A stretch of 15,362 nucleotides of DNA from Nitrospirota bacterium (GTDB lineage: Bacteria > Nitrospirota > Thermodesulfovibrionia > Thermodesulfovibrionales > Dissulfurispiraceae): positions 1 to 15,362 of the forward strand of contig JBFMCP010000053.1 in the NCBI GenBank assembly GCA_040754455.1, given 5' to 3'. The notes beneath the pieces are model-generated. The model did not search any database. It was not told where the DNA came from and saw only the letters and a program-made list of their open reading frames with translations. The position numbers and the translations under genes are program-made. The first letter of the stretch is position 1. Each line of letters starts with the position of its first letter. Shown here in pieces: positions 75 through 15,362 of the stretch.

Positions 75-119
75 TATAGGACATTTCTATTTTGGTCATA
101 TAGGACATTATCATTTTGG
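75..119. repeat. Two imperfect 21-bp direct repeats (TATAGGACATT-nnn-ATTTTGG), 24-bp period; likely transposase-binding sites
   Basis: 75-95 tataggacatttctattttgg vs 99-119 tataggacattatcattttgg, 18/21 identical. Confidence 0.85.
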
Positions 120-203
120 CGTGACACCCATCTCAGCCTTCGCTACAGTCACTGCATGAACTTTTCAATTCCTTCAGCTTATGGCGCGCTGCGCGGTCGC
201 ACG

Positions 204-1589
204 CTAACGAAAATCTGTTTCCAACTTCTTCCTCAATGTATTTCTCGATATGCCTAAGAGTTTCGCGGCTTGGACCTGATTGCCCTTTGTGAGTTCCAAC
301 GCCCTGCAGACCATATTTTTCTCGATTGCCGCAATAATGTCCTGGAATCTTTCCTGACATCCCTCCCTGAATGCGGAATCAATAAGATGAGCGATTGCAT
401 CTTTAAGGGTGGCACAGCTCATCTTTGCGAGTTTCAGGGAATCACAGCATGCAAGGGAGAGATAATTGTCATTGCAGAAGACCATCGCTTTCTGGATCGT
501 GTTCTCGAGTTCCCTGACATTGCCGGGCCATGCGCATCCCCTGAAGTGGTCTAACACCTCCGAGGTGACACCCTTGATTTCCTTCCCGAGCTTCCTGTTG
601 AATTTCCCGATGAAATACTGCACAAGATCGTCGATGTCCTCTCTCCTTTCCCGCAAGGGCGGCAGGGCTATCGTTACCACATTGATACGATAGAAGAGAT
701 CTTCCCTGAATGTTCCTTTCTCCACCATACTTTCAATATCTTTGTTCGTTGCGGCGATAAGCCTCACATCAGTCTTTATCGTTTCGTTTCCGCCGACCCG
801 CTGGAACGTGCCGTCCTGGATAAAGCGCAGGACCTTCGCCTGAAGGGAGAGGGACATATCGCCGATCTCATCGAGAAAGAGCGTGCCGCTGTCGCACTGC
901 TCGCATTTCCCTATGCGTCTGAATTCAGCCCCGGTAAACGCTCCCCGCTCATGCCCGAAGAGTTCGCTCTCCAAAAGCTGCTCGGGAATGGCCGCGCAGT
1001 TGATGGCGAGAAAAGGCTTGTTCGCCCGTTTGCTGTAATGGTAGACGGCCCGCGCAACCAGTTCTTTGCCTGTGCCGCTTTCCCCCCTGATGAAAACAGT
1101 GGCATCCGTAGGAGCCACCCTCCCGATCTGCTTATAGATATCGAGCATCACGTGGCTTTTGCCTATGATCGTCTCCCCTTTTGTGTAATCCTCTGTTTGA
1201 TCAAAGGTGACCACTTCTTTCACAAGTTCTTTCGCCTTGATTGCGCCCTTGACCCGTACAAGCAGTTCGTCGTTGTCGAAGGGCTTAAGAAGATAATCAT
1301 AGGCGCCGAGCTTCATGGCCTGTATCGCCTTTTCGGTCGTGCTGAAGGCGGTCATCATGATCACCTGGACTTCGGGATGGGACTCCTTAATCCTGCCCAA
1401 GGCATCCAAGCCGTCAATCTCCGGCATTCTGACATCCATAAGAACGAGATCAGGAGCTGCTCCGGCGATAAGCGCCAGGGCTTTTTCTCCGTTCGTCTCG
1501 GTTACAACGTCATAGCCCTCAGCCTGAAGCAGCCGCTGAAGCGAATAGCAGACTGTCTTCTGGTCATCGACAACAAGTATGGTGTTCAT
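204..1589 (-). CDS. Sigma54-dependent response regulator (NtrC/AtoC family: receiver + AAA+ + Fis-type HTH)
   Basis: Receiver domain (ILVVDD, DLVLMDVRMP, KPFD), Walker A GESGTGKE, GAFTGA loop, Walker B LFLDEIGD, WPGNVRELEN and C-terminal GNQVQAAKLLGISRNTLRKKL. ATGA overlap with the kinase stop. Confidence 0.97.
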   Translation of the reverse strand: MNTILVVDDQKTVCYSLQRLLQAEGYDVVTETNGEKALALIAGAAPDLVLMDVRMPEIDGLDALGRIKESHPEVQVIMMTAFSTTEKAIQAMKLGAYDYLLKPFDNDELLVRVKGAIKAKELVKEVVTFDQTEDYTKGETIIGKSHVMLDIYKQIGRVAPTDATVFIRGESGTGKELVARAVYHYSKRANKPFLAINCAAIPEQLLESELFGHERGAFTGAEFRRIGKCEQCDSGTLFLDEIGDMSLSLQAKVLRFIQDGTFQRVGGNETIKTDVRLIAATNKDIESMVEKGTFREDLFYRINVVTIALPPLRERREDIDDLVQYFIGKFNRKLGKEIKGVTSEVLDHFRGCAWPGNVRELENTIQKAMVFCNDNYLSLACCDSLKLAKMSCATLKDAIAHLIDSAFREGCQERFQDIIAAIEKNMVCRALELTKGNQVQAAKLLGISRNTLRKKLETDFR

Positions 1590-2968
1590 GCATGCACAGG
1601 AATCTTCATGGTAAATATAGTTCCCCCTCCATTACTTTCAAAGCTGATGTCGCCGCTGTGGATATTTACGATATTGTATACAATCGAGAGACCAAGGCCA
1701 GTGCCATCGCCTTTTGTCGTGAAAAACGGGTCGAATATTTTTCCCCGTATCTCTTCAGGAATGCCCTGGCCTGTGTCAGCTACCGAAATGATGTAGTGAC
1801 CATCGGCGTTTCTACTTGATACCGTCAGGGTTCCGCCTTCAGGCATCGCCTCGATCGCATTCAGCACAAGGTTCATAATCGCCTGCTCTAAAAGGCCCCT
1901 GTCCGCCTTGACCGGAGGCAGTTTCGTAAGGTCCATTTCCACCGTGACGCGTTGATTCTTCGCCTGATGCTGGGTGAGATTCACGACCTCTTTTATCACA
2001 GGGTTGATGTATACCTCCGAGGGATTGAATTCATCGCCCCGTGCAAACCGGAGAAATCTCGAAAGGATCTCATCCATCTGCTCCGTCGCTGACAGCACTA
2101 CCTGCATGTCCTCCCTTGTCAAGGACGGGTTGTCCTTGAAGGCGTTGAAGAGCACCTTAATAGAGGTCAGGGGATTCCTGATCTCATGGGCGAGTCCTGC
2201 AGAAAGCCTCCCCAGTGCGGTCAGCTTCTCGGTCCTGAGCATCTGCCTGTAGGAGTATTCCATCTTCTTTCTGTAAGTTTCAAGTTCGAGGGAGAGATGG
2301 TTGAAGGTGCTTGAAAGCTCTCCAATTTCGTCTCTCGATTTCACGTCGAGGCTCTTGCCGAATTCTCCCTTCGAAAGAAGGTTGGCGAATCCGACAAGCG
2401 CATTGAGGGGCTTTGTAATAAACCTGCTGAATAAACAGGCGAATGCTGCGCCGGTGAGCGTCACACCTATCGTCAGGGTGATAACAATGTATCTGATCCG
2501 CGCGAGCGTCTGCATTATACGTTCCTCCCGCAGCCCCACATGGACTTCCGGGCTCATACCTGCGAATATCTTCACGCCGATGTCCCGAACGAAGCCCCGT
2601 TCGGTGTCGAGCAGTTGGACGGAAGTCGGTCTGTCATAAAGCGGGTTCCAGCGCAGGACTCCCGGAGGATGGCCGTTCTTGAAGGTGTGGGCAAAGAGTT
2701 CACCGTTGTCGTCAAGGATAAAGATATATTCCACATCCCGCTCTGTCCTGAGGAGATCATCAATAGCCTCCTGCGTCCTGTAGATGTCTTGCAAAAGCAC
2801 TGAGTCCGCGATCCTTTCGGAAAGGTTTCGGGCGATAGATTCGCCCTGCCTCGACAACTCCTGCCGCAAGGAGTCGATCACAACGCTCCGGACTGCAAGA
2901 CCGAGCAATACTCCAAGGCTCAGAACGAGAAGTACATTGAGCAGGACTATCTTCAGCCAGAGCTTCAT
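1586..2968 (-). CDS. Membrane sensor histidine kinase (2 TM, extracytoplasmic domain, HAMP, HisKA, HATPase)
   Basis: Two hydrophobic segments, HAMP (ITKPLNAL...DEIGELSSTFN), H-box LAHEIRNPL, N-box NLVLNAIEAM, G1 DTGQGIP, F-box FDPFFTTK and G2 GTGLGL. ATGA overlaps at both ends. Confidence 0.96.
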   Translation of the reverse strand: MKLWLKIVLLNVLLVLSLGVLLGLAVRSVVIDSLRQELSRQGESIARNLSERIADSVLLQDIYRTQEAIDDLLRTERDVEYIFILDDNGELFAHTFKNGHPPGVLRWNPLYDRPTSVQLLDTERGFVRDIGVKIFAGMSPEVHVGLREERIMQTLARIRYIVITLTIGVTLTGAAFACLFSRFITKPLNALVGFANLLSKGEFGKSLDVKSRDEIGELSSTFNHLSLELETYRKKMEYSYRQMLRTEKLTALGRLSAGLAHEIRNPLTSIKVLFNAFKDNPSLTREDMQVVLSATEQMDEILSRFLRFARGDEFNPSEVYINPVIKEVVNLTQHQAKNQRVTVEMDLTKLPPVKADRGLLEQAIMNLVLNAIEAMPEGGTLTVSSRNADGHYIISVADTGQGIPEEIRGKIFDPFFTTKGDGTGLGLSIVYNIVNIHSGDISFESNGGGTIFTMKIPVHA

Positions 2969-3879
2969 TTAATGAGACCGTATTTAGCGGCCAGAATTTC
3001 TATTTCTTTCAGATCAGCCTCGCGATATTCAGAAAAACCTTTCGGCATCTCTGTCTTGTCCCAATCCACGAGAATCCCTGAATGTTTCCCTTTGGGGTCA
3101 AAAGAAAGAAGCGCAGTCCTGACACTTGCTATGATGGGCAGGTGGACATCTTTATTAGCGCATATGAGGCTGCTCGGGTAGGGTTTCGATGTCGCAATGA
3201 CCTTGATCTTTCCTTCCGACACCAGTCTCTTCGCCATGTTGTCCTGCAGCGAACCGGCGTCATACTCGCCGTTCAGGACGGCCCGGGCAGTCAAGGCATG
3301 AGAGCCGGTAAAGGCATGGCCCTTAAGGTCTGTTATGAGAATCCCTGCGTCTTCCAGCATCTTGCGGGGGATCACATGTCCCTGTGTCGAATACTTGTCC
3401 CCGAATGCAAAGGTCTTGCCCTTTAAGTCCTTAAGCGTATTCACAGAACTGTCGCTCCTGGTAAAGATGACCGAGCGGTACTCAGGCCTGCCGTCCTCGT
3501 TCAGGCCCATCACAAGACAGCTTGAACCATACTGCCTCTTTGCCAAAACGCAGGTTACCGGCCCGAGAGCTGCAAAATGTGTAATCCCCTTGCCGAGATT
3601 TTCAACAGTGCTTTCATACTTTTCCGTGAACTTGATGGAGAATCTGTTTCCGGTGTTCTGCTCAAGATAGCGCAAGAATGGCAGATATATCTTCGTGTCT
3701 TCTTTTGGACTGAGCCTCAGGTCGAAACCGAATTTCAGGGAACGCGCCTCAGCCTGCCGTACGACAGTCTCCTCTTGCGGTGCCCTCTTGTCAAGGCTGA
3801 CTTTTTTGGATACCTCTCTGTCTCCGCAACCGGCAATGCATAGCGTAATTATAATAAGGCAAGCAACATACTTCGCCAT
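2965..3879 (-). CDS. PhnD/AioX-like (phosphate/phosphonate-binding fold) substrate-binding lipoprotein, probably a sensory partner of the kinase
   Basis: Lipobox-like IAGC (Cys18) and PhnD-family motifs (YRSVIF, DLKGKTFAFGD..STQGH..P, GSH...AVLNGEYDAG). It is translationally coupled to the kinase, with no ABC permease or ATPase next to it. Confidence 0.85.
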   Translation of the reverse strand: MAKYVACLIIITLCIAGCGDREVSKKVSLDKRAPQEETVVRQAEARSLKFGFDLRLSPKEDTKIYLPFLRYLEQNTGNRFSIKFTEKYESTVENLGKGITHFAALGPVTCVLAKRQYGSSCLVMGLNEDGRPEYRSVIFTRSDSSVNTLKDLKGKTFAFGDKYSTQGHVIPRKMLEDAGILITDLKGHAFTGSHALTARAVLNGEYDAGSLQDNMAKRLVSEGKIKVIATSKPYPSSLICANKDVHLPIIASVRTALLSFDPKGKHSGILVDWDKTEMPKGFSEYREADLKEIEILAAKYGLIK

Positions 3880-3951
3880 AGGTACTATAAATTTTACACT
3901 ATTCCTTGCCGAAGGGACAGACCGGATATCTGCAAGGCTTGTTTCTTATTA

Positions 3952-4626: not shown

Positions 4627-4637
4627 GACCTTTCAGC

Positions 4638-5648
4638 CTATCCCCCGATCTGCGACATAGGAGACAACGAGGGCCCGAATAAAGCGGGTTCCTGGAGTGC
4701 ATGCCGGGCGGGTTTGGACAGTACGGCGTGTCGATAAAGAGCTTCAAGTTCTTCATCGGCCGCGCCGTTCCTGAGAGGCGTTTTGATGTCCACTGTCATT
4801 TCCGAAAAAAGGCAGGGTCTTAACTTGCCGACAGCCGTGAGGCGCAGCCTGTTGCAGGAACCGCAAAAGCAGTCGCTTATTGCGCTGATGAAGCCGATCA
4901 TGCCCGGCGCTCCCTCTATCCGATAATTTCGTGAAGGACCGCCGCCTTTGAATGCAAGCAGGACCAGCTTTCCCGTGGATGCCACACGGGCCATGATCTC
5001 GTCCTTGCTCAGATACGCATCGGGCTTCCACGTTTCACGGTTTCCAATAGGCATGAATTCGATAAATCGCACGTGAATATCCTTGAACATCGTTAGGGAC
5101 GCAAACCGGGATACTTCATCGTCATTGATCCCGCGCACAGGCACCATATTGATTTTAACCGGCCATAGTCCAGCCCGTTCGGACTCCCGCATTCCTTCCC
5201 ATACGCGGTCGATCTCGCCGCCTCTGGTGATCTTCCGGTACCGGTCGGCGATCAGCGTATCAAGGCTGATATTCACCCTGTCGAGACCGGCCCTTTTTAG
5301 CTGCTGCGCCATTTCAGCTAACCGCTGGCCGTTCGTAGTGATACTCAGGTCCCTGATCCCCATGCTCTTGATCCCCGAAATGAGCGGAATGATATCTTTC
5401 CGCAGCAGTGGTTCGCCACCGGTCAATCGGACTTTTTTTACGCCGTTTTTGGCCGCAATGCACACGATCCTGATGATCTCATCGGTGGTCAGGATATCTG
5501 ATTGATCGAACCGCTTCAAGCCCTTTTCAGGCATGCAATAGATGCACTTCAGATTGCATGAGTCCGTGATGGATATACGGAGATAGTCGATCTGCCGGTT
5601 GAAGGAGTCCTTTAGCGTTTCCGTGCTGCCGTTCGATACCATGTTCAT
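4638..5648 (-). CDS. moaA: GTP 3',8-cyclase MoaA (radical SAM)
   Basis: YLRISITDSCNLKCIYCMP (CxxxCxxC), RLTGGEPL, FCGSCNRLRLT...PCL and C-terminal MSQIGG. The start could alternatively be the ATG at 5642. Confidence 0.97.
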   Translation of the reverse strand: MNMVSNGSTETLKDSFNRQIDYLRISITDSCNLKCIYCMPEKGLKRFDQSDILTTDEIIRIVCIAAKNGVKKVRLTGGEPLLRKDIIPLISGIKSMGIRDLSITTNGQRLAEMAQQLKRAGLDRVNISLDTLIADRYRKITRGGEIDRVWEGMRESERAGLWPVKINMVPVRGINDDEVSRFASLTMFKDIHVRFIEFMPIGNRETWKPDAYLSKDEIMARVASTGKLVLLAFKGGGPSRNYRIEGAPGMIGFISAISDCFCGSCNRLRLTAVGKLRPCLFSEMTVDIKTPLRNGAADEELEALYRHAVLSKPARHALQEPALFGPSLSPMSQIGG

Positions 5649-5666
5649 GGGCGTCCAGGGATATCC

Positions 5667-6737
5667 TTATCCAAGTTTCCCGAACGGACAGACCGGATAA
5701 TTGCAGGTCTCGCATTTCATGCAAAGTCCTCCGTGACCGAGTTCTGATAACTCCCTTCTCCCTATCTTCTCTCCTGCAAGAACCCTCGGAAGGATCAAGT
5801 CAAAAATAGTGGTTTTTGCATACATGCCGCAGGCCGGAATACCGAGAATGGGGATATCCCCGAGATAGGCAACAAGAAACATCGCACCGGGCAGAACTGC
5901 CGAGCCGTAGGTAAGGTCCTGGGCTCCAAGTTTCCTGATCGCAAACCTCGTCACATCATCAGGGTCAACAGACATGCCGCCAGTGGTGATCAGCAGGTCA
6001 GCCCCAGCGTTTATCAATTCCCTCAGCCTTGCCTCGATGAATGTTTCATCATCCGGGGCATAATATGCGCCCACGATTTCGCCTCCCATGGCCTCTATCT
6101 TGGCCTTGATAATAGACGCGAAGGCGTCCTTTATTCTGCCGTAGTAGACTTCATTGCCGGTGATGACCACGCCTGCCTTCGGCTTCCTGATCTCTCTGAC
6201 CTGAATGATCTTTCCAGCCTGCTCGCCGATCTTCACCGCTGCCTGCACTACATCCTTCTTCACTATCAAGGGAATTGCCCTCGTTGCGGCAACCGTCTGA
6301 CCTTGTTTCACAACCGTGTTGCTGTGGAGCGTTGCACACATAATATCACCCAGCATATTGAATTCAAGAAGGGCGTCTTTGGTTATCTTCAGCAAACCGT
6401 CTCTCTCTGCAATGATATTTATCTTTCCCTCTTTGGGTTCACCCTTTATCTTCACTCCCTCTCCCATAAGGGCGTTTGAAAGGATATAGGCAGCATCGTC
6501 TTCGTGCATCTCATTATCAGCGATATTAAGAACAAAGAGATGTTCCTTACCAAGCCTCTGGAGATGACAGACATCTTCCTGTCTGATGACATGTCCTTTC
6601 TTGAAGACTCGCCCCTTGAACTCTCCAGGCCTTATTTCGGTTATGTCATGGGCAAGTACAGTGCCTATAGCTTCTTTTGCCGAAATTGTCTTTACGCCTA
6701 TCCTATCTTTTGTATCAGGCCTTTGAATATCGCACAT
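5667..6737 (-). CDS. MoeA-like molybdopterin-binding protein (MoCF biosynthesis domain) with a C-terminal Cys cluster
   Basis: AIGTVLAHDITEI N-terminus, VVITGNEV..GRIKD, TTGGMSVDPDDVT, PGAMFL, GIPACGMY and C-terminal CMKCETCNYPVCPFG. AGGAGG RBS. Confidence 0.85.
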   Translation of the reverse strand: MCDIQRPDTKDRIGVKTISAKEAIGTVLAHDITEIRPGEFKGRVFKKGHVIRQEDVCHLQRLGKEHLFVLNIADNEMHEDDAAYILSNALMGEGVKIKGEPKEGKINIIAERDGLLKITKDALLEFNMLGDIMCATLHSNTVVKQGQTVAATRAIPLIVKKDVVQAAVKIGEQAGKIIQVREIRKPKAGVVITGNEVYYGRIKDAFASIIKAKIEAMGGEIVGAYYAPDDETFIEARLRELINAGADLLITTGGMSVDPDDVTRFAIRKLGAQDLTYGSAVLPGAMFLVAYLGDIPILGIPACGMYAKTTIFDLILPRVLAGEKIGRRELSELGHGGLCMKCETCNYPVCPFGKLG

Positions 6738-6745
6738 AAAACCTC

Positions 6746-7879
6746 CTAAATTCTCAAAGTATTTTTCATCATCGTGAAGCTATAATGAACCCCTAATCCG
6801 AGGACAAAACCAACGGTAAGGTTATTTGTCAAAAATCCTGAAACAGCAACTGTTAATGCAACAAACACAGCTTTCTTATCGGCTATAATGTCCCTTATAA
6901 ACAGCGAATGTTGTATTCCTACATAACATAGCAGAACACCCAAAATCCCCAAAGGGAAGGCCGAAATAATGGACAGGGCTGACTTACCAAATAGAAGAGC
7001 AAGGACGATCAGTAGACCGCCTATTATATAGCCTGATCTCTCGCTTGTTGCACCAAATTTGCTGTGTGCTGTCAGTCCCCCGCATCCATGACACATAGGA
7101 GCGCCTCCGAAAAATCCCGACGTGATATTAGCAAAACCCATGCTCAAAGGAACGCTCTGAAGGCTAAGTCGCTCTGCTTTTTGTCCATAAAGCAATTTGC
7201 CGGTTGCCTCTGTTGCGACTATAGCATTGCCAAAAGTCAGCGCAATCTGAGGAAGAACAAGAAGAGTAAAGCCCCTCCACAGGCTGTCTGCATCAGGCAA
7301 TGCCGGGCTTAATGCCACTGGTCCGATTGCAAGAGGGGTAAGCCCTCTTATCGAGAATACTGCCCCGAGTATTAAGATAGGGATGAGCGGCGGTATTTTT
7401 TTTATCAGCGCAATATTTGTTATAAGTAGCAGCCCTGCAACGACTGCGATCAGAATGTCTGCGCTTATAAGACCTGAAGCCGATCTGACAAGCATCATCC
7501 CCAAACCAAGCTGTATGCCCCGTATTACGGACACAGGGAAAAAACTCCCGAGTTTCACACTCAGGCGGGTCAACGAAATGAAAATAAGAATGATACCCAT
7601 AGCTATACCTGCAGCATTAATCACCTCAAAATTCAACCCTGATGCTATTGCTATGGCGGACATTGCCTTGAGCGGCTGAACAGGCATTGTGATCCTGAAA
7701 TAATAAGCGGATATTACATAAAAAAGCCCTGCCATCAAGAAAAGCGCCGTGGGATTAAAGCCGTTCTTCACGATCAGTGCAATAGCTATAGGAAACAGGA
7801 CACCGATGTCGCCGAAGGCGCCTGAAATATCCCATGCGAGCTTTCTAAAATTATCTGAAGGTATCCCTGAATCTCTCAT
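6746..7879 (-). CDS. MOT1-family molybdate transporter
   Basis: Polytopic membrane protein with MOT1-type motifs DISGAFGDIG..FP, PVQPLKA and PMCHGCGGL.AH.KFGA. Start moved from 7906 to the ATG at 7879, which has AGGAG 7 nt upstream (377 aa). Confidence 0.85.
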   Translation of the reverse strand: MRDSGIPSDNFRKLAWDISGAFGDIGVLFPIAIALIVKNGFNPTALFLMAGLFYVISAYYFRITMPVQPLKAMSAIAIASGLNFEVINAAGIAMGIILIFISLTRLSVKLGSFFPVSVIRGIQLGLGMMLVRSASGLISADILIAVVAGLLLITNIALIKKIPPLIPILILGAVFSIRGLTPLAIGPVALSPALPDADSLWRGFTLLVLPQIALTFGNAIVATEATGKLLYGQKAERLSLQSVPLSMGFANITSGFFGGAPMCHGCGGLTAHSKFGATSERSGYIIGGLLIVLALLFGKSALSIISAFPLGILGVLLCYVGIQHSLFIRDIIADKKAVFVALTVAVSGFLTNNLTVGFVLGLGVHYSFTMMKNTLRI

Positions 7880-8180
7880 CAACAAGCTCCTGTATTCCTT
7901 TTTCAAGTAACTCGTATTTCTTCAAGAAGGCTCTTGCGTCATCCGTAATGATCGCCCCGCCGCCGTTTCTCCCGCCGGTCTGCCGCTCGATAAGCTTAAA
8001 ACCAAGCCTTTCTTCCATGGCCTTGATGTAACCCCAGGCCTTCCGGTAGGAGATGTTGATCTCCTTTGCAGCCTGGTTGATCGAGCCGTATTTGTCTATT
8101 GCCTCAAGCAGAAATCGTCGACCTCTGCCGAAGACCGGCTTTCCGTCAACCTCGATCCAGAGCTTTGATTTAATCTTCAT
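7851..8180 (-). CDS. modE: ModE-type winged-helix regulator, DNA-binding domain only (no TOBE/mop domains)
   Basis: FGRGR..LLEAI...GSINQAAKEINISYRKAW..I..ME..LG..LIER.TGG.NGGGA.IT is the ModE N-terminal signature. At 109 aa it is too short to carry molybdate-binding domains. Confidence 0.88.
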   Translation of the reverse strand: MKIKSKLWIEVDGKPVFGRGRRFLLEAIDKYGSINQAAKEINISYRKAWGYIKAMEERLGFKLIERQTGGRNGGGAIITDDARAFLKKYELLEKGIQELVDERFRDTFR

Positions 8181-8194
8181 GATCGCCTTTCATC

Positions 8195-8217
8195 CGTTAT
8201 GGAATAACTGCATAACG
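8195..8217. promoter_or_regulatory. ModE-box-like operator palindrome CGTTATG-N9-CATAACG
   Basis: Perfect 7-bp inverted repeat ending 14 bp upstream of the modE-like ATG. It resembles the CGTTAT...ATAACG core of ModE operators. Confidence 0.75.
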
Positions 8218-8223
8218 CAGATC

Positions 8224-8245
8224 AAAAAATATCCTGCCCGACAGG
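8224..8245 (-). terminator. Possible weak intrinsic terminator after the FmdE-family gene
   Basis: Minus strand CCTGT-CGG-GCAGG short hairpin followed by ATATTTTTT, directly after the stop codon. The stem is short. Confidence 0.3.
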
Positions 8246-8248
8246 TGA

Positions 8249-8827
8249 TTAATATCCGGCATCAGCACAAGGCCGGCAGAGGACCTTTCCCTTTATCTCG
8301 ACCTTCCGCATGTCTTGCACATATTCACCGCAGGCCTCGCATTTCACCCTCCGCAAGGGTCTTCCAGGCATGTCTTCCGGATTTATCTTCACTTTCACGT
8401 TCATGACGTCGAAGAGTTCTTCATCAGGCATGATCTTGTATGCCTCAAGCTGGGCCTCATACTTGTTTTCGATCTCAGCAAAAAGCTCTTTTGCCTTCTG
8501 TCGTGAGTCCTCCCTTGCAATGACGCGCACGGCCTTGCCCGTTTTGAGGTTGACGAATGTCGCGGCCATTTTCCCGTAATCCATGAACTTCATGGTCCTG
8601 TGGCCGAGGCTGCATCCGGTGACCGACTGAACGGCATCGGTTGCGCATCTGTCAATCTCAACAAAGACGATGATGCTCTTTCTGTCTTTGCCTTTGGGAT
8701 CTGTAATAGCGATCTCCCTTAGCCCAAGCATGGACATCTTCACCCCGAGCACTTGGCCGGGACAGAGATGGCCGTGAATCCGTGAGGACTCATTGAGGAG
8801 TTGCTCAAAGTCAAACAGATTCGTCAT
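8249..8827 (-). CDS. FmdE/FwdE-family protein with a C-terminal zinc finger
   Basis: HGHLCPGQVLG, EIDRCATDAVQSVTGCSLG, DYGKMAATF and C-terminal CEACGE...LCRPC. AGGAG RBS. Confidence 0.9.
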   Translation of the reverse strand: MTNLFDFEQLLNESSRIHGHLCPGQVLGVKMSMLGLREIAITDPKGKDRKSIIVFVEIDRCATDAVQSVTGCSLGHRTMKFMDYGKMAATFVNLKTGKAVRVIAREDSRQKAKELFAEIENKYEAQLEAYKIMPDEELFDVMNVKVKINPEDMPGRPLRRVKCEACGEYVQDMRKVEIKGKVLCRPCADAGY

Positions 8828-8834
8828 GTCTCCT

Positions 8835-9440
8835 TTAGATACAACCTTTCAATATGTATGAAGCGCCTTTGTAAAAATCATCCCCAGACGCCCCTATGAC
8901 TTTTTCGACAAAAAAGGGAACCCATAAGGCCATATGTCCCCTTATAAAATCTCCCCTGATCTCGAAAAGCCTGGACGCCTCTTCGCGCTCTCCCTTTTCG
9001 AACAGCTTTATCATCCTGCCGGTGAGGTCGTAGATGAATTCCAGCTCTATCCCAATATGATCGTCGGGAATACTGTACAATTCCTTTACCGCCATGCCTG
9101 CATCGAGGTATTTTTTTCTTACATCTATGGTTTCATCCGTCATGAGCGAATGGGATTCGGAAAGATAAAACGATGCGTAGGGCACTGCTGGGGGATTTTT
9201 CGGACCTACGAAAAGACGTGCATATTCAACGGCAAGCTCTTCCGTCCATTCATTCAATCTATGGCTGTTTCTGCGGACCGACTCGATCATCAGTTTCAGG
9301 CCGTAGGATATCTCGTCATCGGCCTCCGAAGGCAACTCGGCTTTTGACATGCCCTCGATAAGCTCCCTCATCGGTTCCTTTAAAAATACCTGCCTCAGAA
9401 GATTAAACAAAGAAAGTTCTTCCCTGAGTTCGTCTATCAT
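8835..9440 (-). CDS. TorD/DmsD-family molybdoenzyme maturation chaperone
   Basis: EYARLFVGP...VPYASFYL, PDDHIGIELEF and HMALWVPFF; lies directly downstream of the catalytic subunit. Confidence 0.92.
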   Translation of the reverse strand: MIDELREELSLFNLLRQVFLKEPMRELIEGMSKAELPSEADDEISYGLKLMIESVRRNSHRLNEWTEELAVEYARLFVGPKNPPAVPYASFYLSESHSLMTDETIDVRKKYLDAGMAVKELYSIPDDHIGIELEFIYDLTGRMIKLFEKGEREEASRLFEIRGDFIRGHMALWVPFFVEKVIGASGDDFYKGASYILKGCI

Positions 9441-9462
9441 AAACGCTTCTCCATTAGAAAGA

Positions 9463-9488
9463 GGGACAGGGCCTGTTTGCCCTGTCCC
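9463..9488 (-). terminator. GC-rich stem-loop between the catalytic subunit and chaperone genes (partial terminator or mRNA-stability element)
   Basis: Perfect 10-bp stem GGGACAGGGC (9463-9472) / GCCCTGTCCC (9479-9488) with a 6-nt loop, followed on the minus strand by TCTTTCT. Confidence 0.6.
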
Positions 9489-9515
9489 CTCTCCTCATTT
9501 CAGCAAACATTGGGA

Positions 9516-12362
9516 TTATGCCTTCTTGACCCTTACGATCATGTCAGCATATCCCGGAAAGCCCATGATCGGGCTAAGCACATCGGGATCGACGAGATCG
9601 TTGTGGCTCGGGGTGTATTGCCTGCTCTTATATGCCGGACCGAGCCCCTCGCTAAATCTGCCGCCCGTGGCAAAGCCGATCTTGATGACCCCCGGTCTCA
9701 TACCGCCCGAGGCAAAGATCTTCCCCTTTGTCGACTTGCCAAGCGGGTTTTCCACGACAACGAGGTCTCCGTTCTTGAGCCTCATTTTTTTGGCGTCATC
9801 GATGTTCATCCAGATCGTACCGACCGAATAGGAGTTCGGCTTGAATTTCATCTTCACGGATTTCATGGGATCATCACCCAGAGGCATCGCCTCCGGAACA
9901 TCCGCCTCGAACTCCTTGTTCATCGGCTGCCATGTGCCTTCTGCCTTGATCTCTCCAAGCCAGGGGACCATCTGCGTGCCGCTCATTGCATGATGCACCC
10001 TCCCGGTAATGAGCTGGAAAGGGTAATCCTTTGCGTACTTTTTGTATGCCGTGTTCGTGTAAGGGTTCCATTTGGTCTCGAACCAGTAGAAAGTGGAGGG
10101 GAATCTGTCAAAGCCGATCTCCTTCAGCCCCTTCGGTACTTCTCCGCCCGCCTTCTCGATCTTCTCGTTATGCGATTTGTACTGACCGAATCTCTTGTCT
10201 CCTTCTTTCCAGTCCCATTTGAATTCGATCAATTTCGTCGAAGTATAAGGCCATGCCTTGTTCGGCTCCTCAGCGTTGACCTTCTTGTACCTGCGCCAGC
10301 TCATGGGCCAGATGGCAACGCCGTTGTTGCTCCTGAGCCATTCTACCGTAACCGGCTTGCCCTTGATCACCTTCTTTTCGTGATCGATGGTCACTTCACC
10401 CTTTTCGAGCGATTCCGGAGTGCCTATTATCTGGTAGCCCTCGGGATACTGGGGATAGGGAAGCGGGGTCCCTACATTGTGGCGTCCGGGCGAGACCGAA
10501 AGCATCTCGTTTACGAAGTCCTCTTCGGTCTTGTACTTCTCCCAGAAGTCCGAGCCCTTGATGTCGGCGTCGCCAAGCTCACTAAGCTTCTTGGCGAGCA
10601 TGTTCATGATCTCAGTGGGCTTTTTGCACTCATGGAGAGGTTTGATCACCGCGTCCCTGTTGTAGATCACCGCATGAGACGGATATATGTCGCTCAGGCT
10701 CTGGCGTTCGGCATAGCTTGCCTCGGGAAGGATCACATCCGCATAAAGGGCGCTTTCCAAATTCAGGCTGTCTATGAAGACAAAGAGCTCGAGTTTGTAG
10801 TTGCCCGACTTGTCCTTTGCAGTGATTGCCGCTTTCCATTTCCAGGGAGCAGAGCCCGTGACCACAGAGTTCCCGGTCCTCAGGACGTATGCCTTGATCG
10901 GATAGTGATGGCCCCTGAAGGCGCCGTATCGGATATCAACGCCCTCCATAAAGGCATTGGGATAGTCGGCGACCGAGTCGTCCCAGGCGGCCGGGAACTT
11001 GCTGCCGAAGAGGTCCATATGGAGATCTCCGACCTTGCCTTCCACCTCCTTGCCGCCGATGATTCTCTTGACCTTTCTGTCCTTGAAGAAGCCGCCGGTT
11101 GCGCTGCCTCCCTTTGAGGCTTTCGTTATCTCAGTGTCGATGACTCCGCCCGGAACATCGAAGTTCCCCGTTACCACATTCAGGGCCACACCGAGGATCG
11201 ATGCGCAGTAGCCGTTATAATGGTGCCCTGGAGACTGCATGCCCCAGACGAGGGCCGCGGGCTTCGTGCTCCCGAAAAGATGGGAAAGCTCCTCTATCTG
11301 ACCTCTTGAAAGGCCTGTCCTGTCCGCCGCCCAGTCGAGGCTGAAATAGCTAAGGCCGTTTATTGGGTCCTTCTTCGCCCACCATGACTTGAAGGCCGCT
11401 TCGAACTCGTCCCAGCCGACCGAATATTTCTTGAAGCTCCAGTCGATGTACTTCTTGTTCGGGTCGTTCTGGTTGTCGTTTTCGAGGATATATCTGAGCA
11501 TGGCGCCGAAGAGATCGCCGTCAGTGCCGGCCCTCGGGGAAAGCCACATGTCGGCACGTGCGGCGGTGTTGCTCAGGGACGGGTCTATGACCACAACCTT
11601 GCAGCCGTTTTCGACCTGAGCGCCGACAGTACCTCTCTGCTCATAATAAATCCTGGTGGCTACAAAGGGGTTCCAGCCGTTATAGACAATGAGCTTCGTC
11701 CTGTAGGTGTAGTCCTTTTTCAACGAACCGTCAGGCTGTCTCACGAGCTGGGGCCTCATGATATCAGGCTCCCACCTCTTGCCGCCGACCATGAGCTTGG
11801 GGCCGTGCCGCCTCGGCGTATCGCATATCGCGCCGTGTTCCGTGCAGTTGGGTGTACCGAACGCGAAGAAAAGGCGGTAGTACTGGTCCCTGTCCGTAAC
11901 GTCGCCGCAATCCATTATCACCGACTCGGCGCCGTATTTCTTCTTGATGTCAGATAGCTTCCGGCCTATGTGGTCTATCGCCTCATCCCATGTGACACGT
12001 TTGAATTTTCCCTCGCCCCTCTTGCCGACCCGTATCATCGGGTACTTCAGCCTGTAGGGGGAATAGACAAGCTGCTGACCTGAAGCGCCCTTTGCGCATG
12101 CGGTACCCGCATTCATCGGCACCGCCTTGTTGCCGTAAATCTTCGCTATCTTTCCGTCCTTGACCCACATCTCAAGGCCGCATTCGGCAGGGCACATGGC
12201 GTCTGCGGTGTATTTCACTTCATATTTGCCCATCGCGGTCTGCATCGCCTCGGCCTCGGACGGGGAAAGGTGTTTCAAGGACAGCAGGCCTGTCTTGTTC
12301 AGCGCTGCGATACCTGCTAATGCCCCGCTATATTTTAAGAAGACTCTTCTTGATATCTGCAT
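9516..12362 (-). CDS. Tat-exported Mo/W-bisPGD oxidoreductase catalytic subunit (DMSO reductase family, Psr/Phs/Arr/Anr-like branch); substrate unassigned
   Basis: Tat motif SRRVFLK with an AEA cleavage-like site. N-terminal Fe-S motif D54-x2-C57-x3-C61-x27-C89, RLKYPMIR...TWDEA, GTPN..HGAIC180D putative Mo-ligand segment, VVIDP..S.TA..AD.WL..R.GTD, ADVILP..SY.ER and the C-terminal molydop-binding domain (YPFQLITGR..H). AGGAGG RBS. Confidence 0.93.
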   Translation of the reverse strand: MQISRRVFLKYSGALAGIAALNKTGLLSLKHLSPSEAEAMQTAMGKYEVKYTADAMCPAECGLEMWVKDGKIAKIYGNKAVPMNAGTACAKGASGQQLVYSPYRLKYPMIRVGKRGEGKFKRVTWDEAIDHIGRKLSDIKKKYGAESVIMDCGDVTDRDQYYRLFFAFGTPNCTEHGAICDTPRRHGPKLMVGGKRWEPDIMRPQLVRQPDGSLKKDYTYRTKLIVYNGWNPFVATRIYYEQRGTVGAQVENGCKVVVIDPSLSNTAARADMWLSPRAGTDGDLFGAMLRYILENDNQNDPNKKYIDWSFKKYSVGWDEFEAAFKSWWAKKDPINGLSYFSLDWAADRTGLSRGQIEELSHLFGSTKPAALVWGMQSPGHHYNGYCASILGVALNVVTGNFDVPGGVIDTEITKASKGGSATGGFFKDRKVKRIIGGKEVEGKVGDLHMDLFGSKFPAAWDDSVADYPNAFMEGVDIRYGAFRGHHYPIKAYVLRTGNSVVTGSAPWKWKAAITAKDKSGNYKLELFVFIDSLNLESALYADVILPEASYAERQSLSDIYPSHAVIYNRDAVIKPLHECKKPTEIMNMLAKKLSELGDADIKGSDFWEKYKTEEDFVNEMLSVSPGRHNVGTPLPYPQYPEGYQIIGTPESLEKGEVTIDHEKKVIKGKPVTVEWLRSNNGVAIWPMSWRRYKKVNAEEPNKAWPYTSTKLIEFKWDWKEGDKRFGQYKSHNEKIEKAGGEVPKGLKEIGFDRFPSTFYWFETKWNPYTNTAYKKYAKDYPFQLITGRVHHAMSGTQMVPWLGEIKAEGTWQPMNKEFEADVPEAMPLGDDPMKSVKMKFKPNSYSVGTIWMNIDDAKKMRLKNGDLVVVENPLGKSTKGKIFASGGMRPGVIKIGFATGGRFSEGLGPAYKSRQYTPSHNDLVDPDVLSPIMGFPGYADMIVRVKKA

Positions 12363-12373
12363 TGTTACACCTC

Positions 12374-13039
12374 CTATCCGTTAAGCTTGCCGTCGGCCGC
12401 ATCAAGCGCCTCTTTATCCGGCGCGATGTAAGGGGTTTTCGGTTTGGTTCCGTATTCAGGATGCCAGTCCAGTGTTTTCACCGAAGCCTTGAGCTTCGAA
12501 ACCTCGCTGTTGGGGTCGTTCAGATCGCCGAAGATCCTCGCGATGCCGACGCAGTTCCTCACGCACGCCGGCTCCTCGATCCCCTGTGCGAGCCTGTGGC
12601 TGCAGTAGTCGCACTTATCAACCACTCTTAAATCCTTTGCCTTCTTTCCCTTAACCTCAGGGACGTCTTTGGCGAACTTTGCCGGATCATTCTTGACAGG
12701 GATATGCGGATGCATAAACCGTGCGCCGTACGGACATGCACCAACGCACCTGCCGCAACCGATGCAGAGTTCCCTGTTTACCATCACCACACCATCCTCC
12801 CCCTTGTACGTGGCGCCAGGTACAGGGCAGGGAAGGACACAGGGAGGCTCCTCGCAGTTATTGCAGAGCTTCGGGAAAAAGTGGCGCTTCGCCTTCGGGT
12901 AATCTCCTGTATCGGCAAAGTCCACCCTTGCCCTGAAGTGGCCTATCGGCACAGAGTTTTCCATCTTGCAGCTCACCTGGCAGGATGTACAGCCGATGCA
13001 CTTCCTCAGATCCACGAGCAACGCATACTTCTTTGACAT
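12374..13039 (-). CDS. Four-cluster [4Fe-4S] electron-transfer subunit (DmsB/PsrB/ArrB-like)
   Basis: CIGCTSCQVSC, CNNCEEPPCVLPCP, CIGCGRCVGACPYGAR and KCDYC...PACVRNC..AR.FGDLNDPNSEVS. No signal peptide. AGGAGG RBS. Confidence 0.95.
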   Translation of the reverse strand: MSKKYALLVDLRKCIGCTSCQVSCKMENSVPIGHFRARVDFADTGDYPKAKRHFFPKLCNNCEEPPCVLPCPVPGATYKGEDGVVMVNRELCIGCGRCVGACPYGARFMHPHIPVKNDPAKFAKDVPEVKGKKAKDLRVVDKCDYCSHRLAQGIEEPACVRNCVGIARIFGDLNDPNSEVSKLKASVKTLDWHPEYGTKPKTPYIAPDKEALDAADGKLNG

Positions 13040-13087
13040 AATATATCTCCTCCTTTCAAATTAAATCTTTGTTAACAGGAAAATTAA

Positions 13088-13104
13088 AGCAACTGTTATG
13101 CCGG
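13088..13104 (-). promoter_or_regulatory. Sigma54 (-24/-12) promoter for the B-A-D operon
   Basis: Minus strand CCGGCATAACAGTTGCT = GG-N10-GC with TTGC, close to the TGGCAC-N5-TTGCW consensus, about 50 bp upstream of the B-subunit ATG. Confidence 0.85.
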
Positions 13105-13108
13105 TCGG

Positions 13109-13121
13109 AAACCACTTGAAA
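13109..13121 (-). promoter_or_regulatory. Possible IHF site between enhancer and sigma54 promoter
   Basis: Minus strand TTTCAAGTGGTTT vs WATCAA-N4-TTR (2 mismatches), with an adjacent A/T tract, in the expected position. Confidence 0.4.
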
Positions 13122-13146
13122 AATAAAGGAACAAGTCTAACTAAGT

Positions 13147-13182
13147 TGTGCAGGTCTTGAGCAGGTGTGCAGAAAGTGAACA
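13147..13182. promoter_or_regulatory. Tandem palindromic upstream activator sites (TGTGCA-N5-TGARCA x2)
   Basis: 13147-13163 TGTGCA-GGTCT-TGAGCA and 13166-13182 TGTGCA-GAAAG-TGAACA, 19-bp period, about 70-105 bp upstream of the predicted sigma54 start. Confidence 0.65.
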
Positions 13183-13282
13183 GTACTCATTTGCTTTCTA
13201 AGGTCTTTCATTGATCAATCAGGTTGATCCGGAAAAAAAAAGCTGCAAAAGAGGAAAGATTGGCCGAATAAAGAGATGTGAA

Positions 13283-14218
13283 CTATTTCAATATCCCTTT
13301 CACAATCACATCCACCGCCTCTTCAGGCGTCAGCCCGTGCGCCATCAGTGTCTCCATCTGGCGTTTGTCCACGCTGCCGATCGCTGCCTCATGGGTCACC
13401 TTTGCAAACTGATTTGTGACATTGACGATTGGGATGGCCTTTGCCAAGGCCTTGTCCTTCACAATCTCCATGCAATCTACATGCCCGCGTGAGCCTTCCG
13501 CATTTCCCTCCGTGATGCCGGTAACTTCTGCTGTAGCCTCATCCTCAATAGCAACTCTGGTCTTTATAATACTTCGCGAGTTTTTACCCTCCAGCGCAAC
13601 TTTTTCTTTTATTTTTATATCGTCATTCGCATGGCCGAAGACCCTTGCTGTCAGTTCAGTCACGGCATTTTCTCCTGCCTCGACCTTATAGTCCATATCG
13701 AGTTTCCCGACCCTTCCAGTGGTCAGCGTAAAATCCGCAAAGTACCTGCCGTCCTTCCCGATCTTTACAACCGCTTTCGGGACGACCTCAATGCCGCCGT
13801 AGAGCCCATGATAGTGGGTCTCCGAATATCTCATCTCTGCGCCTTCTCCGATCTCAACTACTGCGTCCATGATATGCCGCACCTTTTCAGCCTTCGGGAA
13901 TATGCAGTGGGCAATGAAATGCGCAGATGAATTCTTTTCGAGGGTAACATCCATCTTGATTTTTTGGGTCCCCTTGGCGTGCAGAACGCCGAAGCAGAGA
14001 TGAACCGGATTCTTTATCTTTATGCCTTCTTTCACCGTAACCCTGGCGCTGACCCCGGTCAGGGTCTCTCTCGCATCGACCTCAAGCCCTTCCACGCTTT
14101 TCATGCTGAGGAGTTTATGCCCGCTTGCAACAAGATGCGCTATCTCATTATTTTCAAGGATGGCCTTGTCGCCACCGGCGTCACCAAAGGCCTTCATAAG
14201 ATCATAAAGTTCACTCAT
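13283..14218 (-). CDS. sufB: SufB/SufD-family Fe-S scaffold, short form (SmsB-like)
   Basis: PVHLCFG, AHCIFP, RGHVDCMEIV and AKVTHEAAIGSVD..QMETLMAHGL..EEAVDVIVKG. Start moved from 14299 to the ATG at 14218 (GGAGG RBS, overlapping the sufC stop), giving 311 aa. Confidence 0.88.
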   Translation of the reverse strand: MSELYDLMKAFGDAGGDKAILENNEIAHLVASGHKLLSMKSVEGLEVDARETLTGVSARVTVKEGIKIKNPVHLCFGVLHAKGTQKIKMDVTLEKNSSAHFIAHCIFPKAEKVRHIMDAVVEIGEGAEMRYSETHYHGLYGGIEVVPKAVVKIGKDGRYFADFTLTTGRVGKLDMDYKVEAGENAVTELTARVFGHANDDIKIKEKVALEGKNSRSIIKTRVAIEDEATAEVTGITEGNAEGSRGHVDCMEIVKDKALAKAIPIVNVTNQFAKVTHEAAIGSVDKRQMETLMAHGLTPEEAVDVIVKGILK

Positions 14219-14924
14219 TGCACACCTCCCCGTCACAGACAACGCATTTTCTTGCTTTATAGTACTCCGCCACTTTGTGCGGCCTTCCTGAGCAGACAAT
14301 GTTCCCCCTGCATATCTGGGATGCCTTGTCCGCGATCATAGCTATCTCTTCCCTGTGGGTTATCAGCAGCACCGCTGATCCGTTTTGCTTAAACAGATTA
14401 ATGACATTTATGATATCCTGCGTCGAAAGCATATCTATGCCCGAGTCAGGCTCATCGAGGATGGCAAGCTTCGGTCGAAGCGCCAGGATCGATGCAAGCT
14501 CTATCCGCTTCCGCTCTCCTCCGCTCAGACATTTGTCGGCCATTCTTCCAAGATACAGCGCCGGGGAGAGGCCGACCATTTCGAGATAATGAGACGGATC
14601 TGCACCCTTATGTTTCAGCGTGAGATAGTCCCTGACGGAAATTCCCTCAAACCTCACCGGCTCCTGCCAGGCCATGGTGATACCTAACTGCGCCCGCTCG
14701 TGGATTTTGAGGTCGTTGATAACCTTTCCTTCAAAGGCTATTTCACCGGCTGTCGGCCTGTATCCCTCGCAACCCATAATGAGATAAGCAAGGGTGCTTT
14801 TGCCCGTGCCGTTCGTGCCGAGAAGTGCATGGACCTCCGATTGCTCAATCGTCATGTAAAGACCGTCGAGAACTCTTTTCGCGCTCGCATCGTAGGTGAG
14901 TCCTCTTATATCGAGCAACGGCAT
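14211..14924 (-). CDS. sufC: SufC-like ABC ATPase with a Cys-rich C-terminus (SmsC-like)
   Basis: Walker A GTNGTGKST, ERAQLGITMAWQEP, LSGGERKRIE, Walker B ILDEPDSGID, ITH and C-terminal CVVCDGEVC. Coupled to the SufB-like gene. Confidence 0.88.
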   Translation of the reverse strand: MPLLDIRGLTYDASAKRVLDGLYMTIEQSEVHALLGTNGTGKSTLAYLIMGCEGYRPTAGEIAFEGKVINDLKIHERAQLGITMAWQEPVRFEGISVRDYLTLKHKGADPSHYLEMVGLSPALYLGRMADKCLSGGERKRIELASILALRPKLAILDEPDSGIDMLSTQDIINVINLFKQNGSAVLLITHREEIAMIADKASQICRGNIVCSGRPHKVAEYYKARKCVVCDGEVCNE

Positions 14925-14930
14925 CCTTTC

Positions 14931-15140
14931 TTATGGCCTCCTGATCTCATTCGCGATGGAATCAATATCGTATGATACGCCCTGAGAAATATACTTCTTC
15001 TCCTTACAATATTGTATCACCTTATCAATAACATCTCTGAATTCTTCCTTCATGGTCGCCAGCTCACCCATGCCGTCACAGCCTTTTTGTCTTTGTCTTG
15101 CGAGCACGTAGACCTGGGCATATTCTCTGCCCTCGCCTAA
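14931..15140 (-). CDS. Small hypothetical protein, possibly 5'-truncated by the adjacent IS (alternative intact starts at 15071 or 15053)
   Basis: The open frame LGEGREYAQVYVLARQRQKGCDGMGELATMKEEFRDVIDKVIQYCKEKKY... ends 6 nt before the sufC ATG. The first codons of the tracked 82-aa ORF appear to fall inside the putative IS end. Confidence 0.5.
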   Translation of the reverse strand, partial: LGEGREYAQVYVLARQRQKGCDGMGELATMKEEFRDVIDKVIQYCKEKKYISQGVSYDIDSIANEIRRP

Positions 15141-15362
15141 GCAAGTCCGCAAAAGTTTTGTCACAGGTGAGCAGTTCATGATACCTTTGAAGGTAGAGGG
15201 AGGTTATCATGAACAAAACACTCCTAACACCGTATCAGCGCCGTCGACTGCAATACGAATTGCACCACGCTCAGAATGTTCACCATTACCGCCGTATCCT
15301 GGCGATACTGCAGTGCGATAAGGGAAAACCCATTCCTGAAATCTCTCAGATGCTCGAAGTAA
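15138..15362 (+). mobile_element. Left end of a probable IS630-family element (partial)
   Basis: Carries a transposase-like HTH ORF from 15209. A TA dinucleotide at 15138-15139 followed by AGCAAGTCCGCAAAAGTTTTGTC is a plausible terminus, but the boundary is unverified because the other end is not visible. Confidence 0.5.
15209..15362 (+). CDS. N-terminus of a putative IS630-family transposase (HTH domain, partial)
   Basis: GGAGG RBS at 15199-15203, then MNKTLLTPYQRRRLQYELHHAQNVHHYRRILAILQCDKGKPIPEISQMLEV... open to the window edge. The R..A.L....G....EI...L.V pattern is typical of IS630-type HTHs. Absent from the supplied ORF track. Confidence 0.65.
   Translation, partial: MNKTLLTPYQRRRLQYELHHAQNVHHYRRILAILQCDKGKPIPEISQMLEV

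Follow-up and report, generated by a model that had tools for sequence, protein, structure and literature searches.

A stretch of 15,362 nucleotides from a Nitrospirota bacterium (assembly GCA_040754455.1, contig JBFMCP010000053.1, positions 1 to 15,362 of the forward strand; here called the window) encodes the catalytic subunit of an antimonate-reductase-type (AnrA-type) molybdoenzyme, in which an aspartate, Asp54, takes the place of the first cysteine ligand of the iron-sulfur cluster FS0. In a very large superfamily of molybdoenzymes the final relay ahead of the molybdenum cofactor is FS0, and the aspartate is probably a ligand of its iron. We assign a probability of about 0.6 to the reading, drawn from sequence comparison, that FS0 of this AnrA-type enzyme is an Asp54-ligated [4Fe-4S] cluster which arose by one cysteine-to-aspartate exchange, followed by many reversals and by moves of the ligand to position 92. 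The source genome is that of a sulfate-reducing Nitrospirota, and we know of no cultured representative.

The gene is an uninterrupted frame of 948 codons on the minus strand (window 9516-12362), and the residues around the motif read K50-Y-T-A-D54-A-M-C57-P-A-E-C61-G-L-E and, further on, T87-A-C89-A-K-G92-A-S-G-Q96. The positions on which the analysis depends are the following, all on the minus strand.

9516..12362, minus: catalytic (alpha) subunit, 948 amino acids, molybdenum/tungsten-bis-pyranopterin guanine dinucleotide (Mo/W-bisPGD; dimethyl sulfoxide (DMSO) reductase) family, AnrA-type; from Pfam, homology, AlphaFold2 and fold matches
12243..12362, minus: twin-arginine translocation (Tat) signal region, residues 1 to about 40 (M-Q-I-S-R-R-V-F-L-K); from translation, with low predicted local distance difference test (pLDDT) values of 40-66
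12096..12203, minus: FS0 cluster motif D54-x2-C57-x3-C61-x27-C89; from translation and alignment to PsrA
12201..12203, minus: Asp54 codon GAC (plus strand GTC), first-ligand position of FS0; from sequence and alignment
12192-12194, minus: Cys57 codon TGC (plus strand GCA); from sequence
12180-12182, minus: Cys61 codon TGC (plus strand GCA); from sequence
12096-12098, minus: Cys89 codon TGC (plus strand GCA); from sequence
12087-12089, minus: Gly92 codon GGC (plus strand GCC), within C89-A-K-G92; from sequence
12075..12077, minus: Gln96 codon; in homologs Gln96 tends to go with Asp54, which is suggestive only; from an independent-pair test
11823..11825, minus: Cys180 codon, probable molybdenum ligand; from alignment to PsrA and invariance in 261/261 family sequences

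A phmmer alignment to PsrA (2vpw_A, E 2.8e-37) places D54 opposite the first cysteine of the PsrA C-x2-C-x3-C motif, and C180 opposite the cysteine of the ...slCtapre... stretch, which we take to be the molybdenum ligand of PsrA. The claim of a sequence-only reading of this DNA, that aspartate replaces the first FS0 cysteine of the catalytic subunit, is thus confirmed by the codons as well as by the alignment, and the range 12096-12203 and the spacing it had given are exact. Enzymes of the Psr/Arr/Fdh/Nap type carry C-x2-C-x3-C-xn-C, and the window protein departs from the four-cysteine type I form of Arr, Psr and Phs (C-x2-C-x3-C-x27-C) at the first position only, the other three cysteines and the x27 spacing being present. 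It does not show the Nar-type (type II) arrangement of H-x3-C-x3-C with an aspartate as molybdenum ligand, since its motif is D-x2-C and a cysteine, Cys180, stands at the position aligned with the presumed molybdenum ligand of PsrA.

By its domains and its predicted four-domain fold, the protein belongs to the Mo/W-bisPGD (DMSO reductase, MopB) superfamily. The Pfam domains PF04879 (residues 52-101), PF00384 (104-592) and PF01568 (848-939) occur in the expected order, all above the gathering score, and an AlphaFold2 model from a 91-row alignment has a mean pLDDT of 92.1, with 92-93 over residues 51-100, and a predicted template modelling score of 0.92. In a Foldseek search the best fold matches were ArrA (6cz7_A, E 1.1e-43, TM 0.74 on the target) and PsrA (2vpw_A, E 2.7e-41), and the range of matches, acetylene hydratase, Nap and Fdh included, extended from E 1e-43 to 1e-36; PsrA (2vpw_A) is also the best PDB match by sequence. 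None of the 25 NCBIfam models listed reaches its cut-off, the best being PhsA with 223.6 against 694 bits, while the ArrA model scores 110.8 bits against a cut-off of 1600 and the Nar-type models score below theirs.

The relatives of the protein delimit a family of its own. A search of 5.8 billion proteins returned at least 120 of them, with 63-88% identity among the matches listed, and many full-length homologs share 80-91% of their residues with the window protein. Members are spread over Thermodesulfovibrionales, other Nitrospirota, Desulfitobacterium hafniense, Desulfosporosinus, Neomoorella humiferrea, Deferrivibrio, Rhodoferax ferrireducens, Desulfobulbaceae and further taxa. Clustering of a protein library at 50% identity leaves, among the best 150 representatives, one full-length representative for the whole family, the nearest other representative being 45% identical and the rest at most 38%; judged by these identities, the family is a tight, isolated clade. 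Within it, the window protein aligns without a gap, at 80% identity over 948 residues, to a 948-residue protein of Geobacter sp. SVR (P0314), and a 942-residue protein of Desulfuribacillus stibiiarsenatis (P0392) falls inside the same clade. We presume these two to be the published AnrA proteins, encoded in an operon named anrXSRBAD. Excerpts of two papers (PMC12183865, PMC11521347) name AnrA for precisely these organisms, and the title of Kambara et al. 2024, as it appears in the excerpted reference list of PMC13284237, also ties AnrA to them; the reductase is not mentioned in the two Geobacter SVR genome notes, and two phylogenies of the DMSO reductase family refer to the antimonate work in their bibliographies only. 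By sequence, the gene in the window encodes an AnrA-type, that is antimonate-reductase-type, catalytic subunit, and the operon is of the AnrA type.

Two observations concern single members of the family. One of them, at 64% identity (L025, match 10001-12850), lies on a 79-kb contig of a metagenome-assembled genome labelled as a Sulfolobales archaeon; the gene was either transferred laterally into an archaeon or misbinned. In two further loci the alpha gene is split in two frames (L015:9968-12826, with one stop, and L030:9977-11825, with several stops), and these may be assembly errors or pseudogenes.

Conservation at position 54 was read from 261 family rows, comprising full-length (900-999 residues), non-identical sequences with 56-91% identity to the query and including 26 locus translations; fragments, duplicates and the partial or stop-bearing loci L009, L013, L015, L024, L028, L030 and L033-L035 were left out. 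Aspartate occupies position 54 in 176 rows and cysteine in 78, with serine in four and alanine in three, and C57, C61, C89, K91 and C180 are invariant (261/261). Codon 54 could be read in 33 related loci, 29 of which encode aspartate (GAT 17, GAC 12) and four cysteine (TGC 2, TGT 2); the use of both GAT and GAC points to long maintenance of the aspartate. The sequence-only reading had considered a sequencing error unlikely, had proposed an alignment of the closest homologs, AnrA among them, and had named as the unfavourable outcome a cysteine in all of these. An error is excluded by the related loci that encode aspartate through two different codons, and the alignment shows the residue retained in the majority of the family, including P0314 of Geobacter sp. 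SVR and P0392 of D. stibiiarsenatis. Asp54 is neither an error nor private to the window. The idea that the aspartate is peculiar to this genome, stems from misassembly or marks a decaying gene, for which no support was found, is refuted by the intact reading frame, by the full-length homologs at 80-91% identity and by the aspartate counts in rows and loci, and we give this explanation practically no weight.

The spectrum of residues at position 54 is narrow. An exchange between aspartate (GAY) and cysteine (TGY) takes two adjacent nucleotide changes, and the one-step intermediates glycine and tyrosine were never seen. The other single-step neighbours of GAY and TGY (Asn, Glu, Arg, Phe and Trp) are likewise absent from the 261 rows, and serine and alanine occur only together with a change at position 92, three residues after the last cysteine of the motif. 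Where position 54 is aspartate or cysteine, position 92 is glycine or alanine (254/254), and where it is serine or alanine, position 92 is cysteine or glutamate (7/7 in the set used for the 271-row tree). The seven are P0065 (Ser54 with Cys92), P0067 (Ala54 with Cys92, found on 19 contigs), P0078, P0081 and P0088 (Ser54 with Glu92) and P0090 and P0312 (Ala54, with cysteine at 53, and Glu92). Further members of the Ser/Ala54 clusters, from independent assemblies, have the same pairs in 10/10 cases, giving 17/17 in total, and this invariable pairing implies that a fourth ligand is required. In the large tree P0065 stands among Cys54 sequences and P0067 among Asp54 sequences; this placement, taken from tree neighbours only, fits a single-step decay from cysteine to serine and from aspartate to alanine once a ligand at 92 exists. 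A metagenome scan with P0067 yielded no Ser/Ala54 among five loci, and a homolog search with P0078 yielded no clusters of the Ser54/Glu92 type beyond P0078, P0081, P0088 and P0090. Among the columns taken from a mutual-information ranking, 55, 73, 93, 94, 95, 855, 884 and 928 gave no median p below 0.09 in independent pairs. At position 55 (window 12198-12200), a cysteine, as in A-D-C-M-C-P, is found in 22 of 176 Asp54 rows and in one of 78 Cys54 rows, the pair test being not significant.

Beyond the family, aspartate at the first FS0 position was found in two sister lineages. The P0121 lineage (45% identity, 1096 residues) has the motif T-S-D-L-M-C-P-S-E-C, and the P0377 lineage (49% identity; P0377 and three relatives) the motif Y-D-S-Y-C-P-S-E-C; all six rows of these lineages carry the aspartate. 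The next group (P0126, P0129, P0131 and P0134, about 27-34% identity) has cysteine, in C-Y-M-C-S-S-E-C. The survey of the superfamily covered the best 150 representatives of more than 10,000 matches and therefore speaks for these and not for uniqueness in the superfamily at large. Pattern reading recovered the motif in 113 of 149 representatives, with cysteine at the first position in 89 and aspartate in five, namely four fragments of the AnrA-type family and one probable mis-hit with wrong spacing; in other DMSO-reductase-family representatives within this survey no aspartate was seen there. By the same pattern reading, three other paralogs in the window's own genome have the canonical cysteine, a fourth (L039) has neither cysteine nor aspartate (I-R-S-T-C-S-P-N-C, spacing 33), and L041 gave no readable motif.

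Some features of these more distant proteins are recorded here in their own right. In P0121, P0306 and P0307 (1096 residues, from Joint Genome Institute metagenomes) a ferredoxin-like, beta-type part is fused before alpha, with no Tat signal visible in the stretch read. P0377 belongs to a tandem paralog module directly upstream of an AnrA-type module in a metagenome-assembled genome of Thermodesulfovibrionales (L014:4054-6906), with its own beta gene (L014:3355-4041) and TorD-like gene (6915-7691); just three more clusters of its lineage turned up. P0166, P0226, P0227, P0233 and P0264 have P-x-x-G-C-H-G-G-C or a similar motif, with neither cysteine nor aspartate first, and the first FS0 ligand may thus be variable in further clades of the DMSO reductase family.

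The history of the exchange was followed on phylogenetic trees. In a FastTree phylogeny of 271 rows, rooted on a cysteine-bearing outgroup, both Asp sister lineages fall outside the family, and Fitch parsimony on this tree puts aspartate at the root of the family plus its sisters. An IQ-TREE analysis of 45 rows under a site-heterogeneous model, with extra PsrA-like outgroups, makes P0121 sister to all else with an SH-aLRT support of 99-100, and in the rooted trees the cysteine-bearing C-Y-M-C-S-S-E-C clade and the PsrA-like proteins lie outside the Asp superclade. Aspartate is therefore probably ancestral to the superclade formed by the family and its two sister lineages. Inside the family parsimony counts at least 24 changes between aspartate and cysteine on the 271-row tree, and well-supported branches alone force at least 16 on a 175-row tree and nine on the 45-row IQ-TREE. 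Both states occur within single clusters of 90% identity, as with P0336 (Asp) and P0337 (Cys). A recombined patch around the motif was looked for in the Cys-type locus L003; compared with Asp-type relatives, the nucleotide identity near the motif is like that of the whole gene (about 0.76-0.85), a comparison of low power at about 80% DNA identity. The suggestion that the aspartate may be a clade-defining signature does not hold up against the 78 cysteine rows and the repeated changes; it is probably an ancestral mark of the superclade, yet it is neither fixed nor strictly clade-defining.

Taken as a mechanism, the Asp-ligated reading would mean that the N-terminal FS0 domain of this periplasmic enzyme holds a [4Fe-4S] cluster by C57, C61, C89 and the carboxylate of Asp54, and that the cluster passes electrons between the beta-subunit clusters and the molybdenum cofactor via the invariant Lys91. 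The usual first cysteine would have been replaced by aspartate once, on the stem of the superclade, and the aspartate later swapped for cysteine many times, either residue being able to act as fourth ligand. The ligand would have moved in two or three small lineages, position 54 decaying to serine or alanine and Gly92 becoming cysteine or glutamate. An Asp-ligated [4Fe-4S] cluster is favoured because only good iron binders, aspartate and cysteine, are common at position 54 and because the other ligands never vary. We infer from these patterns that iron is bound through the carboxylate oxygen, that four irons are present and that residue 92 can reach the unique iron; the aspartate may also bear on potential, spin state, proton coupling or the ease with which the fourth iron is lost. 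The frequent switching suggests that the difference between aspartate and cysteine is small or dependent on context.

Several points count against this interpretation. The 261-row sample pools several members per cluster, and its percentages are rough. The family's own root state is ambiguous in the Fitch reconstruction ({D, C}), the P0377 clade is either sister to the family or, in the 45-row tree, weakly nested at its base (support 82), and long branches meet near the root, so that the direction of the first exchange is probable and not certain. The compensation at position 92 amounts on the large tree to three independent events, all three in the same direction (sign test p 0.25), and to two events on the 45-row tree, which joins P0065 and P0067 with a support of 92. 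According to an excerpt of PMC5411485, Asp-ligated clusters readily lose the fourth iron, and since iron bound in this way is labile, the isolated or even the native enzyme could hold a [3Fe-4S] form. Finally, Gln96 accompanies aspartate in 115 of 176 Asp54 rows and cysteine in 10 of 78 Cys54 rows, and in 21 independent Asp/Cys pairs it goes the same way in 6.9 against 0.2 the other way, with a median p of 0.016 that is uncorrected for the choice of this column as the best of about 947.

The principal alternative, which we consider rather unlikely, is that of a [3Fe-4S] cluster held by C57, C61 and C89 only, with Asp54 in the second shell rather than bound to iron; the arsenite oxidase subunit AioA, which has a 3Fe cluster and three cysteine ligands, is the precedent. 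One canonical ligand is indeed missing, serine and alanine variants exist at position 54, and, in the excerpted text of PMC5411485, the ferredoxins of Pyrococcus furiosus and Desulfovibrio africanus that have an aspartate at a ligand position are described as losing that iron easily. The alternative would, however, demand different cluster types in Asp54 and Cys54 enzymes that are nearly identical (up to more than 90%), and it sits poorly with the restriction of common residues at 54 to aspartate and cysteine. What also argues for the Asp-ligated [4Fe-4S] cluster over the [3Fe-4S] form is that an iron binder appears at 92 whenever 54 is a poor ligand or none: cysteine or glutamate was gained there in every one of the 17 Ser/Ala54 sequences and in none of the 254 with aspartate or cysteine. 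The sequence-only reading had left both cluster types standing side by side; the first is now favoured, and the pattern at position 92 disfavours the second.

Unlikelier again is an arrangement in which the fourth iron is bound by solvent, hydroxide or another residue and position 54 merely tolerates small polar residues, aspartate and cysteine drifting neutrally. The very high turnover, with no fewer than 24 changes, and the 22 Asp54 sequences with an additional Cys55 would be in keeping with such drift, and an excerpt of PMC5411485 reports that NsrR D8A still binds some cluster, probably through a labile solvent ligand. Neutral drift should nevertheless have produced the single-step neighbours that are absent from the 261 rows, save serine and alanine paired with a change at 92, and it does not account for the recurrence of the aspartate-to-cysteine exchange despite its two nucleotide changes; Cys54-Cys55 also occurs, in one row, and Cys55 is thus no substitute for residue 54. 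At the opposite end, it may be speculated that the AnrA superclade is a natural ligand-swap series in which the unique FS0 iron is deliberately site-differentiated, and that which ligand is used, Gln96 being the partner of the aspartate, is not neutral and tunes potential, spin state, proton coupling or sensitivity to oxidants to the electron donors or habitat of the host. This extension of the Asp-ligated [4Fe-4S] reading is possible, though we hold it with more doubt than belief.

The genes around the catalytic subunit were annotated as follows.

12374..13039, minus: four-cluster ferredoxin (beta) subunit, 221 amino acids; TtrB/DsrO/ArrB-like below curated cut-offs, Fer4_11
8835..9440, minus: TorD/NarJ-type maturation chaperone, 201 amino acids; PF02613
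8249..8827, minus: FmdE-domain protein with C-terminal zinc finger; PF02663, E 2.3e-36
7851..8180, minus: regulator of the ModE N-terminal type with helix-turn-helix, 109 amino acids; TIGR00637, 94.3 bits against a cut-off of 98.5
6746..7906, minus: MOT1-type molybdate transporter; PF16983, E 2.8e-43
5667-6737, minus: MoCF_biosynth-domain protein; profile match
4638-5648, minus: MoaA; TIGR02666, 361.8 bits, above cut-off
3952-4626, minus: MoaD-MoaE fusion; profile match
2965..3879, minus: X, PhnD-like periplasmic oxyanion-binding protein; PF12974
1586..2968, minus: S, sensor histidine kinase; profile match
204..1589, minus: R, sigma-54-dependent response regulator; profile match

The window thus carries all six genes of the module, X, S, R, beta, alpha and the TorD-like gene, and the match of its genes to an X-S-R-B-A-D module is a further reason to regard the operon as AnrA-type. 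In related loci the beta gene precedes alpha, and a TorD-like gene lies 3' of alpha in 28 of 35, the other seven ending in or just after alpha. A complete X-S-R triad stands beside beta-alpha in 19 of the 35 loci, upstream in 17 and downstream in two, and partial triads are found at contig ends in five more. In the window and in L004 the triad lies downstream of the chaperone, after inserted genes for FmdE, the ModE-type regulator, MOT1, MoaA, MoaD-MoaE and the MoCF_biosynth protein (window 3952-8827). The FmdE, ModE and MoCF genes are also found close to the module in L003, L008, L012 and L016. Directly upstream of the beta gene (window 13283-14924, minus strand) are a SufBD-like gene and a gene for a SufC-like ATPase; the former comes nearest to the SmsB model of a minimal SUF-like system (88.8 bits, below cut-off), and as listed overlaps the SufC-like frame by about 90 bases. 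A link of this pair to FS0 assembly is unsupported, the pairing not being conserved in related loci, where only weak SufC matches were obtained.

Among known systems, AnrA of D. stibiiarsenatis MLFW-2 and Geobacter sp. SVR has the same gene set as the window and shares Asp54 in the proteins of both organisms; AnrA-type loci mostly have X-S-R upstream, whereas in the window it is downstream with cofactor genes between. ArrA (6cz7) and PsrA (2vpw) resemble the window protein in the Tat-exported alpha subunit, the x2-C-x3-C-x27-C spacing, the C-x-K-G context and the four-cluster beta subunit, but their first FS0 ligand is cysteine, their identity to it is 19-20%, and the window protein has about 130-210 extra residues. 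Nar-type enzymes (NarG, EbdA, PcrA), which use histidine as first FS0 ligand, provide the precedent within the superfamily for a non-cysteine residue at this place; they have H-x3-C-x3-C and an aspartate as molybdenum ligand, in contrast to the x2 spacing, the leading aspartate and the probable cysteine molybdenum ligand of the window protein. AioA has a [3Fe-4S] cluster with three cysteine ligands and an analogous regulation by AioXSR. In AioA, however, it is the last ligand that is lost, to serine, while in the window protein the first is replaced by a residue capable of binding iron, and the covariation argues for four ligands.

Three cysteines and one carboxylate, as proposed for the window protein, are also found in P. 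furiosus ferredoxin (Asp14), D. africanus ferredoxin III, NsrR (Asp8) and NfnSL, and putting cysteine in place of the aspartate of P. furiosus ferredoxin shifts its potential down by some tens of millivolts. These proteins have unrelated folds and roles, none of their clusters is cofactor-proximal in a molybdoenzyme, and none shows repeated natural Asp/Cys switches in one orthologous family. For NsrR, the excerpt of PMC5411485 gives Asp8 as a [4Fe-4S] ligand and the D8C variant as still loading a cluster. An excerpt of PMC9503767 likewise lists aspartate or glutamate as the fourth [4Fe-4S] ligand in Nfn and P. furiosus ferredoxin, and credits site-differentiated ligands of this kind with a presumed tuning of potential, spin state or lability.

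The D-x2-C-x3-C(-x27-C) motif, in five spellings, was not found in a full-text literature search, and among the papers listed for an Asp FS0 ligand in a molybdoenzyme none was on this subject by title and abstract, subscription papers being outside the coverage of both searches. While the enzyme family is known as the AnrA type, an FS0 in which Asp stands for Cys, with recurrent switches and a migrating ligand, appears to be undescribed. To our knowledge, FS0 has so far departed from the all-cysteine form in two ways, by His ligation in the Nar type and as a 3Fe cluster in arsenite oxidase, and an Asp-ligated FS0, if true, would be the third. The matter is of moderate interest and mainly addresses specialists in molybdoenzymes and iron-sulfur clusters. 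It also touches surveys: two studies (PMC13284237, PMC12183865) take anrA as their marker gene when looking for antimony respiration in metagenomes, and a motif screen insisting on C-x2-C-x3-C would overlook or misread about two thirds of the AnrA-type genes. Orthologs more than 90% identical that differ in aspartate or cysteine, together with the rare forms in which the ligand has moved, offer a ready comparative series for ligand effects on potential, spin state and stability, and such natural variants would let the effect of the ligand be tested without disruptive mutants. Even if the choice between aspartate and cysteine were merely neutral, the AnrA-type family would still be a clear natural example of ligand interchangeability and compensation.

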